Part shown: piece by piece, positions 4,462 to 26,353 of the stretch | Position numbering within the stretch: position 1 is the stretch's first letter | Layout: every line of letters starts with the position of its first letter | Sequence record: PZ295659.1 | Origin: a phage | Direction: 5' to 3' (one strand) | Length of the DNA: 64,000 nt | Program-made: the position numbers and the translations under genes | The notes under the pieces: model-generated | Seen by the model: only the letters and a program-made list of their open reading frames with translations | The model's database searches: none | What the model was told of the DNA's origin: nothing

Positions 4462-4482
4462 GTTTTACCTCCAGTAGTTGAT

Positions 4483-4517
4483 AGGTCTATAATAACATAA
4501 CCATAGACCTTGTAAAC
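4483..4517 (-). promoter_or_regulatory. T4 early-type promoter-like element with flanking inverted repeat AGGTCTAT/ATAGACCT
   Basis: gtaaac (-35 complement) at 4512-4517, tctataataac -10 region; 8-bp inverted-repeat arms at 4483-4508. Confidence 0.45.
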
Positions 4518-4945: not shown

Positions 4946-5947
4946 TTATTTCAGTAAAGTAACTTCAGAGATTTCCTCCCAACCATCTTTATCAGTTGAA
5001 ATAAAATCTGCTACATAAAGAGCCGTACGTAATGATACATTGCGAAGACGAGATACGTTAGCCTTCATCCAGGACAATGCTTTATACGTTTCTGCATCTG
5101 TCAGACCACGTTTCTGCATCATGTCAGTAGATAATATTACATCTTCAACTCGAACCATAATCTCTTCATTAGAGTGTACTCCAAGGTCGAGATACACTGA
5201 ACGAGATACTAAAGCTTGAAGGTGTGGGGCAAGTTTCGAACCGCGTTCTAACTCTTTATCGATATCAACGTTTGTAATGAAAACGATAGTACCTTCAAAC
5301 TCAAATTCTTTATCAATACCCTTATCATCGAGATAAGATGACGCAGTGCTCCAGCAAACTTTGCGTTTATCTCCGGTATCTAATGCTGCTTTAAGAAGGT
5401 TCAAGATGTCCATATCTGAGAATACGTCAACGTCGTCGATTAAGAGAACGCTGTCTGCATCACGGTTGAGCCAAAGTTGTTCGTAAAGACCAATACCAGA
5501 GATTTTACCATTAATGCTTTTGTATTTGATGAAACCGTTATCATTAGCATTATTAAGCGCTTTATCCAGAGAATACGTCTTACCAATACCTGCTGCACCT
5601 GAAATAATGAGTGAACGAATTTTGCCATCGATAATGCCATTCGTCATCATGTTCATTACTTTAAAGCGTTTGTTGATACGAGTTTTCATATCTTCAGTGC
5701 TTTCAACAACTGCAACTGGTGATGTCTCAGCTCCTTCCATTATGATGTCTGATTTGAAGACCCATACTCCACGTTCAGAACCATCGATCATAACGAAAAT
5801 TTTACCGTCACCTAAGTGGGAACATTCAGGATTAAGCTTTGCCGGGAACCATGTCTTTGTGGCAACATAAGAACCAGAGATTTCGTTATTACGATAGATA
5901 CCTTTTTTGATTTGAACGTTGAACATTTTATTCTCCAATTTACTCAT
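4946..5947 (-). CDS. P-loop ATPase (Walker A GAAGIGKT, Walker B LLIDDVD) with ~110-aa N-terminal domain
   Basis: 333-aa ORF; motifs read directly from translation. Confidence 0.6.
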   Translation of the reverse strand: MSKLENKMFNVQIKKGIYRNNEISGSYVATKTWFPAKLNPECSHLGDGKIFVMIDGSERGVWVFKSDIIMEGAETSPVAVVESTEDMKTRINKRFKVMNMMTNGIIDGKIRSLIISGAAGIGKTYSLDKALNNANDNGFIKYKSINGKISGIGLYEQLWLNRDADSVLLIDDVDVFSDMDILNLLKAALDTGDKRKVCWSTASSYLDDKGIDKEFEFEGTIVFITNVDIDKELERGSKLAPHLQALVSRSVYLDLGVHSNEEIMVRVEDVILSTDMMQKRGLTDAETYKALSWMKANVSRLRNVSLRTALYVADFISTDKDGWEEISEVTLLK

Positions 5948-5959
5948 TTCGTTTCGATA

Positions 5960-5993
5960 GGTCTATAATAACATGTTTAAAGCAAAAGTAAAC
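5960..5993 (-). promoter_or_regulatory. early/middle promoter-like element (GTTTAC plus MotA-box-like TGCTTTA, TATTAT -10)
   Basis: Minus-strand GTTTACttttGCTTTAaacatgtTATTATAG upstream of ATG at 5947. Confidence 0.45.
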
Positions 5994-5995
5994 AA

Positions 5996-6214
5996 TTATT
6001 TGCGACGAGATTTTTTGGTAAGAGGTTGAAAGAACACTGCTTTACCTGCAGGAGTCAAAGTAACTCGTAATGCATTACCGATTCCCAAGGATGCTTTAAC
6101 AAGACCTTTAGATTTCAGTTCACCGAATGCTTGACGTTGGTCTGCATCACGAGTGTTAACCATAAGACCTTTATCACCAGCTTCACGAATCATTTCTAAC
6201 ATTTTGGTTTTCAT
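5996..6214 (-). CDS. hypothetical small protein
   Basis: Start moved to ATG at 6214 (MKTKMLEM...), because the longer track ORF overlaps the upstream promoter-like element. Confidence 0.4.
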   Translation of the reverse strand: MKTKMLEMIREAGDKGLMVNTRDADQRQAFGELKSKGLVKASLGIGNALRVTLTPAGKAVFFQPLTKKSRRK

Positions 6215-6235
6215 TTTGTTCTCCTCTTGTTTTGA

Positions 6236-6271
6236 TAGGTCTATAATAACATATCCTAAAAGCATGTACAC
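6236..6271 (-). promoter_or_regulatory. middle-promoter-like element (MotA-box-like TGCTTTTA, TATTAT -10)
   Basis: Minus-strand GTACATGCTTTTAggatatgtTATTATAGACCTATC upstream of ATG 6214. Confidence 0.35.
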
Positions 6272-6298
6272 TACTTTTTAAAAATATTTTGACCCCCT

Positions 6299-6317
6299 AA
6301 AGGGCCCGAAGGCCCTT
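6299..6317 (-). terminator. stem-loop GGGCC-TTCG-GGCCC directly after stop of the nucleotidyltransferase-like gene; weak U-tail
   Basis: Perfect hairpin; same stem sequence as the hairpin after wac at 47343-47356. Confidence 0.4.
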
Positions 6318-6318
6318 A

Positions 6319-7308
6319 TCATTTATAGTATGAATTGTGGTTTTCTAAGTAGACTTGCTCAAGGAAGTCATCCCAGAAACTCATATCTACTTTTTGCTGC
6401 ATACCATTCTTGGCAGCTTGTTCTGATGCTTGTTCAACTTGGTCAACGATATCTTCTAGGAATTCTTGTACAGTTTTAAATGTATGTTTACCAAGCTTAA
6501 CATCGAGAATAAATGGAGCATCCTGAAGTGGGTAAACCAGGTCGCCTGTTTTGTAAATTTCCAATAATTGAAGTCCACCACGACATGCATGACTCAATGC
6601 TTTCCAGTCAATACCTTCGTTAGCTTCTGCCTTACGAGCACGTTCACCATAGTTCTCTTCCAGTTTAACTAGGATGGCATTGAACTCTTTATTGGTTAAC
6701 GTGTCTTGGAATTTACGGTCTAACAGATTATAGAATGTTTGCTTACCTGTTTTCTCGTTTTCAGTTTCAACCCACGAAGCAAATTCACCTACAGGCAGAA
6801 CATTCTTCATATGTGATAAACGAATTACTGCACCATTATCAAAGTATTGTCCCCATTCGTTAGAACGTTTAAGGGCTTGACGAAGAACAGCCAGTCGAGA
6901 ACCCTTGACACCGTATTTAGAAGCTTGCTTACGGACATACCCTAAATAAGATTTCATGTTAGTAGTATAGAAACGAGACCTGTTATCTTGAATATACTTC
7001 CATACATCAGGCAAATCAGATTTAACTACTAAACTTGGTGGAGTGTGAAGCATATCTAATGCGACGGTTTCACCATCCGCAGCTAGTTTAAAGAAATATT
7101 TGAGACTATACAACTCATGGTCAACGTCGTCTTTTGTGTTCTTAGAAGATGTGTTATTCGTGTTCTTGCTCATGTGTTCTTTAACGTTACCGGTCAAGAT
7201 GTCACGAGCATGAGGGACATAAATTTCTTTAAAATCAACGTCAGATTCAGGAGTAGACGTTCCATAAAGGTGGCTACCAAAGTAGCCTTTCATAATTGTT
7301 TTCATCAT
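6319..7308 (-). CDS. nucleotidyltransferase-fold protein (pol-beta-like GS...DxD motif)
   Basis: N-terminus YFGSHLYGTSTPESDVDF fits the hG[GS]-x10-DhD minimal NTase signature; 329 aa. Confidence 0.5.
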   Translation of the reverse strand: MMKTIMKGYFGSHLYGTSTPESDVDFKEIYVPHARDILTGNVKEHMSKNTNNTSSKNTKDDVDHELYSLKYFFKLAADGETVALDMLHTPPSLVVKSDLPDVWKYIQDNRSRFYTTNMKSYLGYVRKQASKYGVKGSRLAVLRQALKRSNEWGQYFDNGAVIRLSHMKNVLPVGEFASWVETENEKTGKQTFYNLLDRKFQDTLTNKEFNAILVKLEENYGERARKAEANEGIDWKALSHACRGGLQLLEIYKTGDLVYPLQDAPFILDVKLGKHTFKTVQEFLEDIVDQVEQASEQAAKNGMQQKVDMSFWDDFLEQVYLENHNSYYK

Positions 7309-7778
7309 TTAGCCTTATATTCAAGAGTAGGACAGACTTTTTCTTTACGAGCTTTAAGGTATTCGCCTATTAATGATTTCTTACGTTCAATAGGCTCAAG
7401 TCCATTTTTAATTCGTTCTTGGTTTTGCGCAATGAGCTCAATTTCTTTATAATATTTTCTGTCGTTATATTTGTCTAACAACCAAGACGGACCAATTATC
7501 AACCCGGCAGAAATAAAAGCCATGACTGATACCATTAAAATGCCTACGCCAATTGAGGCTGGAACTAATGTCCATAGACTGCTAAAAACAAAGAATCTAG
7601 TTAAAATTTCCTGGCCAATGATTACGACTGCTGCTAAAATAGCAAATCCGATAATTGAAACAGACAATACCGGGATTAACGTTTTCCAAAAATAAGCACA
7701 CAACGTTTTAGGGCGATTCCATGTACTATTGAACGCGGCATAAATTTTAAAGTGCCAAGAGTTTTCATTGATAATCAT
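7305..7778 (-). CDS. hypothetical integral membrane protein
   Basis: 157-aa ORF with at least three hydrophobic helices; stop overlaps NTase start (ATGA). Confidence 0.5.
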   Translation of the reverse strand: MIINENSWHFKIYAAFNSTWNRPKTLCAYFWKTLIPVLSVSIIGFAILAAVVIIGQEILTRFFVFSSLWTLVPASIGVGILMVSVMAFISAGLIIGPSWLLDKYNDRKYYKEIELIAQNQERIKNGLEPIERKKSLIGEYLKARKEKVCPTLEYKAK

Positions 7779-7787
7779 AATAATTCC

Positions 7788-8318
7788 TTATTTCAAAGTC
7801 GGGATAATGGAATCAAGATAAGCTTTAAGAGCAACTGCTTCATCTTTGTCTAATGTAACGATATGTTGACGAAGGTCATCAATTTGACGAATAACTACGA
7901 CATCACCATCTTCATAAGAAGGATTAACGCCTAGGACTGTTGTATAGTCAGGGCGGTCCTGATTTGTAATAAAAGCATTACGGCATTTAGCCCATTGAAG
8001 TTTGGCCTTTTTGGCTGTTTCAGATTCCACGAATTCTTTCACCTTAGTGACGAATGTTTTCCAATTATTAATAGAAAAACATTCGTCTTCAGTTTCGATA
8101 TTAACCCCACTATAAAGTCCACGATAAAAACGAACTTGAAGGTCTTCGTCAATGTTAATTACAGATGCATGGCCCGGTGGATTGAGTTTCAAAATCTTGT
8201 CCAGTTCCATAGGAAGAATAGTAACCGCATCATCTTCTTGCGTCAGAACGTAAGCACAACCACGTTTTTCTATACATAAATCACCAAACAACTCAGTCGT
8301 TTCAATTACAGTTTTCAT
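7788..8318 (-). CDS. hypothetical protein
   Basis: Track start at 8330 is TTG; ATG at 8316-8318 (MKTVIETT...) preferred. Confidence 0.5.
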   Translation of the reverse strand: MKTVIETTELFGDLCIEKRGCAYVLTQEDDAVTILPMELDKILKLNPPGHASVINIDEDLQVRFYRGLYSGVNIETEDECFSINNWKTFVTKVKEFVESETAKKAKLQWAKCRNAFITNQDRPDYTTVLGVNPSYEDGDVVVIRQIDDLRQHIVTLDKDEAVALKAYLDSIIPTLK

Positions 8319-8319
8319 A

Positions 8320-8499
8320 TTATTCACCAATTAAAGTTTCAACAAAATTCACCAAAGCATTCTGGCAAGCATCAACCTGATTTTCATAAAAGTCTCCGTT
8401 ATCATTTACCGCATGATAAGCTACATCATTCAAATCTGAATCGGCTTCACGTAAGTCACGGATAAGGTCCATCAATTTATTAGCTTGTTCACGGGTCAT
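8320..8499 (-). CDS. hypothetical small acidic protein (59 aa)
   Basis: Manual translation MTREQANKLMDLIRDLREADSDLNDVAYHAVNDNGDFYENQVDACQNALVNFVETLIGE; below track size cutoff. Confidence 0.3.
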   Translation of the reverse strand: MTREQANKLMDLIRDLREADSDLNDVAYHAVNDNGDFYENQVDACQNALVNFVETLIGE

Positions 8500-9423: not shown

Positions 9424-9726
9424 TTAGATAGATTTAGGCTCTAATTTTATTTTCATGAACTCGGCAAATTGTCTGGCAGTTTTTATGCCTTGTTCATGAC
9501 ATTCAAATGCATCATCACAGGGGCTATTTTTGTAATGCTTTGCCATATACTTATAAAATTTTTCAGAATTCTCAACATTTTGAATTTCGAACAAAGTATA
9601 TACGTTTTTAATCCCTGATTCCATAAAGTTGTCAAAGTACGGGTCAACATATGCAGTGCCAACGATAGGAGTTGTTGCTGCAAAAAACCCCAGCATCGCC
9701 ACAATGGCTATCGCTCTTAAGGCCAT
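9424..9726 (-). CDS. rI: lysis inhibition regulator RI (antiholin)
   Basis: 100 aa, N-terminal signal-anchor MALRAIAIVAMLGFFAATTP; VDPYFDNFMESGI and conserved Cys pair resemble remembered T4 RI; located just below tk as in T4. Confidence 0.75.
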   Translation of the reverse strand: MALRAIAIVAMLGFFAATTPIVGTAYVDPYFDNFMESGIKNVYTLFEIQNVENSEKFYKYMAKHYKNSPCDDAFECHEQGIKTARQFAEFMKIKLEPKSI

Positions 9727-12958: not shown

Positions 12959-13008
12959 TCTCCTCTAGTTGACAGGTCTATAGTAACACAACTAGAGGAG
13001 AAGTAAAC
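12959..13008 (-). promoter_or_regulatory. early-promoter-like element with perfect 12-bp inverted repeat CTCCTCTAGTTG/CAACTAGAGGAG including the regB SD
   Basis: gtaaac at 13003-13008; -10-like TATAGA between the arms. Confidence 0.45.
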
Positions 13009-26196: not shown

Positions 26197-26273
<77 letters not shown>

Positions 26274-26279
26274 AATATA

Positions 26280-26353
26280 TGACCCAGACCAGATTCGAAC
26301 TGGTAACCTTTCCCTTATGAGGGGACTGCTGCTAACCGTTGAGCTACAGGGCC
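26280..26353 (-). tRNA. tRNA with CAU anticodon (Ile, lysidine-type, or Met), no encoded CCA
   Basis: Manual fold: acceptor GGCCCTG/CTGGGTC with one mismatch, anticodon loop CTCATAA, T arm ACCAG-TTCGAAT-CTGGT. Confidence 0.7.

Follow-up and report, generated by a model that had tools for sequence, protein, structure and literature searches.

In the nrdC-rI accessory region of the phage sequence record PZ295659.1, analyzed here as one stretch of 64,000 nucleotides (hereafter the window), a run of minus-strand genes encodes an AAA+ ATPase, a basic protein of 72 amino acids (aa), a 329-aa nucleotidyltransferase (NTase), and a 157-aa membrane protein. The window belongs to a Mosigvirus (an RB69-like T-even phage), and the ATPase and NTase genes are orthologs of the catalogued T4 genes nrdC.10 and nrdC.11, respectively. 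We lean, if only slightly, toward a reading in which the nrdC.10-nrdC.11-(mobD slot) segment of Mosigvirus comprises independently promoted early accessory genes that form no obligate module, and in which the NTase is an RNA 3′-terminal nucleotidyltransferase of the RlaP family, likely serving in tRNA repair. The activity and in vivo substrate of the phage enzyme are those that we infer from its family membership, catalytic residues, and fold, from the polynucleotide kinase (Pnkp) and RNA ligase (Rnl1) of the related Shigella phage phi25-307, and from the RNA repair neighborhoods of bacterial relatives. Though genuine and correctly read, the genes are ordinary, near-identical copies having already been annotated in hundreds of phage genomes, and both the NTase family and the membership of T4 NrdC.11 in it have been published. 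What is added here is that the phage enzyme falls in a distinct "long" clade, located in bacteria within RNA repair operons, and that the AAA+ ATPase next to it does not partner it.

The NTase is 78% identical to T4 NrdC.11 (NP_049709) and matches the RlaP family (PF10127) above threshold (48.5 bits against a cut-off of 23; E = 1.2e-12). All of its homologs carry precomputed PF10127 assignments, and its PHROG match is phrog_388, "nucleotidyltransferase" (E = 2e-126). The protein consists of an N-terminal minimal NTase core and a HEPN-like helical domain, with a beta-hairpin insert at approximately residues 177–201. An initial homolog search returned near-identical T-even proteins alone; searches were re-seeded with homologs from Cr30 and ValKK3 to gain depth. 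The NTase alignment comprises 118 sequences (the window protein and 117 homologs at 33–40% identity). Gly11, Asp23, and Asp25 are invariant across this alignment (118/118), Ser12 is conserved in 117 sequences, and position 85 is Asp in 116. The catalytic set of polymerase beta-type NTases (hG[GS], [DE]x[DE], and a third carboxylate) is thus present, and the invariant residues, together with the PF10127 assignment, bear out the first-pass annotation of this DNA, made from sequence alone, which had read the N-terminus (YFGSHLYGTSTPESDVDF) as the minimal signature of that superfamily. The same annotation had proposed a third catalytic acid in the motif ALDMLH. Conservation of Asp85 fits that proposal, but Asp63 and Glu65 on the neighboring strand are acidic in every aligned sequence and, being as conserved as Asp85, are candidates for the third metal ligand too. 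Further near-invariant blocks run Y124..Q128..K131-Y-G-x-K-G-S-R138 and Y220-G-x-R...D234-W-K..S-H..R243. Searches of PDB sequences, both single-protein and profile-based, returned no match for the NTase, and PADLOC and NCBIfam scans gave no meaningful matches. In the T4 RefSeq record (locus L001, 19436-20446), residue 108 of NrdC.11 reads X (DLPDXWKF), implying an ambiguous base in that record.

RlaP proteins are named for their association with RNA ligases. In jumbo phages their distribution mirrors that of RNA ligases, and their predicted role is to put back, ahead of ligation, nucleotides that RloC-type nucleases have excised (PMC7824862). A December 2025 preprint characterized two Pseudomonas RlaPs (PfRlaP and PaRlaP) from rtcB-rlaP-rtcA operons, which add one or two nucleoside monophosphates to the 3′-OH of RNA from any nucleoside triphosphate, and also from deoxynucleoside triphosphates; they prefer Mn2+, are inactive on DNA and protein, and favor the broken end of a cleaved-tRNA mimic (bioRxiv 10.64898/2025.12.29.696909). 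According to the same study, RlaP partly restores aminoacylation of a tRNA missing one anticodon-loop nucleotide, its 3′-OH product suits 5′-phosphate ligases, and the last helix packs back on the NTase domain in the PfRlaP crystal structure; T4 NrdC.11 is placed in PF10127, in cluster 5 of the sequence similarity network (SSN), with "unknown function" (bioRxiv 10.64898/2025.12.29.696909). In earlier comparative work, nrdC.10 had been noted as AAA-like and nrdC.11 assigned to the COG3541 NTases; searches of the literature under the names and accessions of the two T4 genes yielded no functional study. The first-pass annotation had allowed that its three main genes might all have characterized T4 orthologs; two have orthologs (nrdC.10 and nrdC.11), both uncharacterized. 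Of the roles it had offered for the NTase, nucleic acid end modification is the one that the RlaP assignment supports.

When one genome from each prokaryotic species was scanned, 74 loci with full-length relatives of the NTase (26–52% identity) were recovered, many of them on megabase-scale contigs from Alphaproteobacteria, Chlamydiae/Dependentiae, Desulfovibrio, and others. Neighboring genes were identified via clustering, hidden Markov models (HMMs), and Pfam. A canonical short RlaP lies immediately downstream of the long NTase at 37 of the 74 loci (PF10127 over the full length, 218 bits); RtcB is found nearby at 10 loci (421 bits), a Ro60/TROVE-vWA protein at 8, and an HD_4 protein at 6, with at least one of the four present at 45. 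The bacterial tandem runs from a long NTase of ~325 aa to a short RlaP of ~250–270 aa, often accompanied by RtcB, Ro60/TROVE, or HD_4; in one metagenomic protein (P0162), HD_4 is fused to the long NTase. T4-like phages carry the long form only, short RlaPs being found in phiKZ-like and other jumbo phages and not in T4-likes. Across 79 viral loci bearing the NTase (40–99% identity, sampled with 10-kb flanks), short RlaP, RtcB, Ro60, and HD_4 are all absent within 10 kb of the NTase, as they are from the entire window. Elsewhere in its genome, phi25-307 encodes a polynucleotide kinase and an Rnl1-type RNA ligase. The bacterial context thus ties the clade to RNA repair, and on the phage side there are healing and sealing enzymes that an RlaP would serve; this supports the proposed mechanism without proving it.

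RNA repair as a means of phage counter-defense was first exemplified by the T4 Pnkp/Rnl1 pathway, and RloC-type nucleases have been proposed to defeat this repair by excising the wobble nucleotide. In the mechanism judged most likely here, a host anticodon nuclease of the PrrC or RloC type would cut a tRNA and may trim one nucleotide; phage Pnkp would heal the ends, the NTase would refill the tRNA 3′ end ahead of ligation, and the 5′-phosphate ligase Rnl1 would seal the break. Should NrdC.11-type enzymes indeed refill the wobble nucleotide, T-even phages would carry a third layer of this arms race; the idea of refilling after RloC has already been proposed by others for the RlaP family, and is directly testable with existing T4 genetics.

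Several observations weigh against this interpretation. The PF10127 match spans NTase residues 7–140 alone (model positions 23–147 of 249), and an HMM built from the bacterial short RlaPs did not detect the window NTase at E below 1e-5. Activity data in the RlaP family come from SSN cluster 1a enzymes only, not from phage or cluster 5 members, and the low base specificity of RlaP would make accurate refilling of an anticodon inefficient. Because the 10 kb on either side of the NTase contain no RNA ligase, kinase, or RtcB at any of the 79 T4-like loci, the association with repair genes in phages holds at the level of the genome only. For the neighboring ATPase, structure and sequence searches resolve no further than "AAA+". 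Finally, the T4 nrdC.11-mobD.3 segment is deletable under laboratory conditions, with no phenotype given, though this would also fit an accessory role.

The same chemistry could serve purposes other than repair. The NTase might tail RNA 3′ ends, either to direct host mRNAs or tRNAs to decay or to control phage transcripts, comparable to poly(A) or oligo(U) tailing. RlaP adds one or two non-templated nucleotides, whatever the base, to a wide range of cellular RNAs, rRNA and full-length tRNA among them, and no ligase adjoins the phage NTase gene. Judged by sequence inspection only, the recurrent neighbors of the NTase in other T4-like phages resemble NAD-salvage genes and tk; next to NTases that stand alone (loci L060-L091), these are genes for what look like a NatV-like nicotinamide mononucleotide adenylyltransferase-Nudix protein (14 loci), a NadV-like nicotinamide phosphoribosyltransferase (9 loci), and thymidine kinase. 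However, addition by RlaP halts after two nucleotides, unlike that by a tailing polymerase, and RlaP prefers the broken end of the cleaved-tRNA mimic; bacterial members of the clade also sit with RtcB, Ro60, and a second RlaP. We consider tailing unlikely on these grounds, though worth bearing in mind.

A more elaborate form of the tRNA repair reading, which as a whole seems to us rather improbable, would make the long RlaP a specialized clade paired with short RlaP in bacterial RtcB/Ro60 operons; T4-like phages would have captured the long form alone, as a counter-counter-defense that puts back the nucleotide excised by RloC-type anticodon nucleases, with Pnkp and Rnl1 completing the repair and the translationally coupled membrane protein (phrog_944) localizing or gating it at the membrane.

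Slightly more doubtful again is that ATPase, NTase, and membrane protein work as one system, such as an ATP-regulated NTase anchored in the membrane and acting in anti-defense or signaling. Such a system would account for the order membrane > NTase > ATPase, which recurs in two Straboviridae subfamilies and reaches Acinetobacter phage AM101, and for the overlap of the membrane gene stop with the NTase start (AAATGATGAAA; AAATGATG), which the first-pass annotation had reported and which the sequence confirms; a membrane homolog in PAK_P1-like phages also lies in an RNA repair cassette beside an Rnl1-type ligase and a kinase. This order is lost, however, in Cr30, KVP40-like, and metagenomic T4-like phages. 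At the 79 viral loci, the ATPase gene is found near the NTase in 38 cases (always downstream on the same strand, at +7 to +2272 bp) and the membrane gene in 50 (nearly always upstream on the same strand); 13 loci have the membrane gene without the ATPase, and 28 have neither. No PF10127 gene neighbors the ATPase homologs of Eneladusvirus, Asteriusvirus, Wroclawvirus, KVP40-like phages, or six contigs of metagenomic or bacterial origin; the ATPase occurs without a nearby RlaP in at least 9 independent contexts, and no recurring ATPase partner was found across nine distant contexts. Membrane homologs in ICP1, Serratia phage BF, and Aeromonas phage AP1 have neighbors unrelated to RNA repair; T4 itself lacks the membrane gene, a mobD homing endonuclease occupying its slot; and within the window the block is split by separate promoter-like elements and a hairpin (Table 1), with no PADLOC matches. 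The loci counts and the partnerless ATPase homologs show that, in the closer T4-like phages, the trio keeps its order without being an obligate unit. Of the "cluster" described in the first-pass annotation, then, what is demonstrated is gene order, not function.

Nucleotidylation of proteins in the manner of MNT, such as AMPylation of a host HEPN toxin with the enzyme's own HEPN-like domain used for recognition, is improbable to a still greater degree: the MntA score falls short of its cut-off (12.9 vs. 60 bits), the flanking genes include no separate HEPN gene, bacterial RlaPs left E. coli proteins unlabelled, and an NTase core with a HEPN-like domain is also seen in kanamycin NTase and is not diagnostic. 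Least probable of all is that the NTase makes a signaling or decoy nucleotide (as a CD-NTase or the Hailong oligo-dA synthase HalB would), or depletes such a signal, given that the match is to the shared minimal NTase core alone (127 residues, 16% identity), that CD-NTase structures score poorly (8yso; E = 0.37, probability 0.08), that no PADLOC, Pfam, or CD-NTase/CBASS family match was obtained, and that the family assignment is RlaP. CCA-adding enzymes and poly(A) polymerases were set aside as well, there being no match to the Pfam PolyA_pol head domain at E up to 1. The CD-NTase, MNT, and CCA-adding families had all been named for checking in the first-pass annotation, and none finds support in profile or structure searches.

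The four minus-strand open reading frames (ORFs), including the small one between the ATPase and the NTase, lie where they had been called (Table 1), and the motifs reported for the ATPase (GAAGIGKT, LLIDDVD) and for the NTase (YFGSHLYGTSTPESDVDF, ALDMLH) are present. Each ORF has hundreds to thousands of homologs and a strong PHROG match (E = 1e-161 for the ATPase, 7e-43 for the 72-aa ORF, and 4e-52 for the membrane protein, beside the value given above for the NTase), and these are therefore real genes and not chance ORFs. The 3.9-kb segment is 97–98% identical to Mosigvirus genomes (among them Escherichia phage SQ17 and phi25-307), phi25-307 being the closest relative (97.7% identity over this region). 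Placement in the nrdC-rI accessory region was also correct: orthologs of nrdC.8 and nrdC.9 flank the genes on the right side as read on the coding strand, and a MobD.1/y05I-like gene and rI lie on the opposite flank. In phi25-307 and several relatives, an extra 317 bp lie between the 72-aa ORF and the NTase (locus L002, 7716-8136, corresponding to window positions ~6215-6318); this DNA holds an additional 93-aa ORF (gp058), an instance of small-gene gain or loss inside the block. Many deposited phage genomes label the nrdC.10 and nrdC.11 orthologs "thioredoxin," which appears to be an error propagated from the name of the neighboring nrdC gene. Farther along the window, two adjacent tRNA genes, tRNA-Arg(TCT) and tRNA-Met(CAT), occupy 26197-26353 on the minus strand; the T4 cluster comprises eight tRNAs.

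Table 1. Features of the nrdC.10-nrdC.11 segment and its rI-side flank, in window coordinates.
Feature	Position	Strand	Basis or remarks
AAA+ ATPase, T4 NrdC.10 ortholog	4946-5947	minus	333 aa from first ATG; 326 aa from second
Early-promoter-like site before ATPase	5956-5992	minus	hexamer scan; TTTACT, 16 nt spacer, TATTAT
72-aa basic protein, phrog_6001	5996-6214	minus	PHROG match
Early-promoter-like element before 72-aa ORF, second copy	6234-6270	minus	sequence scan
GC-rich hairpin, UUCG tetraloop	6300-6317	minus	terminator-like scan
RlaP-family (PF10127) NTase, T4 NrdC.11 ortholog	6319-7308	minus	329 aa; Pfam and PHROG
Membrane protein, phrog_944	7305-7778	minus	157 aa; PHROG match
MobD.1/y05I-like gene	7788-8330		
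rI	9424-9726		53% identity to T4 rI

A 19-nt block (ATGTTATTATAGACCTATC) occurs in three exact minus-strand copies in the window (4480-4498, 5956-5974, and 6234-6252), where 0.07 would be expected by chance. Each copy supplies the −10 region of a site resembling a T4 early promoter, located before the nrdC.8 ortholog, the ATPase gene, and the 72-aa ORF, respectively, and these elements are putative early-type promoters. Three further, diverged copies lie at 12971, 20901, and 27836. A hairpin (AAGGGCC-UUCG-GGCCCUU) begins 2 nt past the NTase stop codon, with a predicted RNA fold of −13.4 kcal/mol and z = −1.2 against shuffles, which is suggestive but short of significance; it is probably a transcript-end or stabilizing structure, parting the membrane-NTase unit from the later minus-strand genes. 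Judged from the sequence, the membrane gene and NTase would constitute one translationally coupled unit, with the small ORF and the ATPase each served by its own candidate promoter.

The 72-aa protein is basic (16 K/R vs. 6 D/E) and absent from T4, and its ATG is preceded by a Shine-Dalgarno sequence (GAGGAG). It is found in 138 phage records and at 5 of the 79 viral NTase loci, and is a sporadic insert. A GTG start at 6271, which would yield a 91-aa version, was rejected, as the longer ORF would run through its own promoter-like element. Matches to MarR and IclR had E above 1 and no significance; a winged-helix-like fold is possible.

The ATPase is 77% identical to T4 NrdC.10 (NP_049708). Its true start is probably the second ATG, at 5926, since GGAG lies 7 nt upstream and the resulting protein agrees with residue 1 of T4 NrdC.10 and with the 326-aa product of phi25-307. 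The structural model (predicted local distance difference test score, pLDDT, of 94.3) has a five-strand beta domain (residues ~9–71), a linker, and an AAA+ core and lid (84–333). Across 116 homologs the catalytic elements are kept: Walker A Lys123 (115/116), Walker B Asp171/Asp172, and sensor 1 Asn226, with Arg249 in an SRS box aligned with the SRC arginine finger of RFC and Arg307 as sensor 2. The P-loop ATPase of the first-pass annotation can accordingly be specified as a complete AAA+ protein, with the full motif set on an alpha/beta core with a helical lid. In an exhaustive profile search, the family numbered 5,633 clusters (50% identity) at an E-value limit of 1e-3 and 1,526 at a limit of 1e-30; in many of these clusters the N-terminal region is different or missing. 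The window protein thus represents a very large, mostly phage family that has no functional or Pfam assignment. PDB sequence and profile searches gave weak matches to RFC, DnaC, and Cdc6 alone (RFC4, E = 4e-4), and assignment as a STAND NTPase was rejected (nSTAND3, 17.1 bits vs. a cut-off of 27.2; nSTAND_NTPase5, 13.9 vs. 34). The protein is a stand-alone ATPase with clamp-loader/initiator-like motifs, and probably acts as an ATP-driven oligomeric remodeler or loader. In the jumbo phages Eneladusvirus and Asteriusvirus (loci L003, 8785-12418, and L005, 8813-11593), the ATPase homolog is N-terminally truncated and is followed by a tandem array of 6–9 small genes (~110–120 aa), annotated as "membrane proteins" in an Erwinia phage.

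The membrane protein has one continuous hydrophobic stretch (residues 29–101), with room for 2–3 helices, and a charged C-terminal tail; it is an integral membrane protein, in keeping with its first description as a multi-pass one. The phrog_944 alignment shows N-terminal SWH[FY], LCxYFWKT, and C-terminal YLKAKKxKxCP motifs, with invariant cysteines Cys27 and Cys149. Homologs occur in 1194 phage records, with carriers including T2, RB51, Klebsiella, Acinetobacter, and Aeromonas phages, ICP1, PAK_P1-like phages, and jumbo phage BF; in T2, RB51, and many other T4-like phages the gene adjoins the NTase (~48% identity). Identity with NrdC.7 was considered and rejected on comparison with T4. In the PAK_P1-like Pseudomonas phage MAG1 (locus L016, 4925-7764), the repair cassette runs metallophosphoesterase, helix-turn-helix protein, membrane protein, Rnl1-type RNA ligase, and AAA_33 kinase, followed by NAD-salvage and macro-domain genes. 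The occurrence of this membrane protein beside RNA repair enzymes in two independent lineages is a lead, though it could be coincidence.

Compared with known phrog_944 proteins (RB32ORF096c and the PAK_P1 "membrane protein"), the window membrane protein shows full-length homology, with shared terminal motifs and central transmembrane segments, whereas many family members have an extra N-terminal region of ~85 aa that it lacks. Set beside clamp-loader and initiator AAA+ proteins (RFC small subunits, DnaC/DnaI, Cdc6/ORC, and DnaA), the ATPase has the complete AAA+ motif set, with its SRS box aligned to the SRC finger of RFC and a sensor-2 arginine in the lid. The NTase has its polymerase beta-type core in common with minimal MNT-type NTases and Hailong HalB, and the fusion of that core to a HEPN-like helical domain in common with the kanamycin nucleotidyltransferase ANT(4′). 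The canonical RlaPs PfRlaP and PaRlaP show the same hG[GS], DxD, and third-carboxylate motifs, and probably share the plan of an N-terminal NTase domain followed by a C-terminal helical domain. Relative to these ~250–270 aa proteins, however, the window NTase is ~80 residues longer, has an internal beta-hairpin insert and conserved blocks of its own (Y124-R138 and Y220-R243), and aligns to the Pfam model over its N-terminal third only; the NrdC.11 type also falls in SSN cluster 5, separate from the characterized RlaPs of cluster 1a. Finally, the phage NTase is solitary, with no adjacent ligase, whereas its bacterial clade members are associated with RtcB operons.

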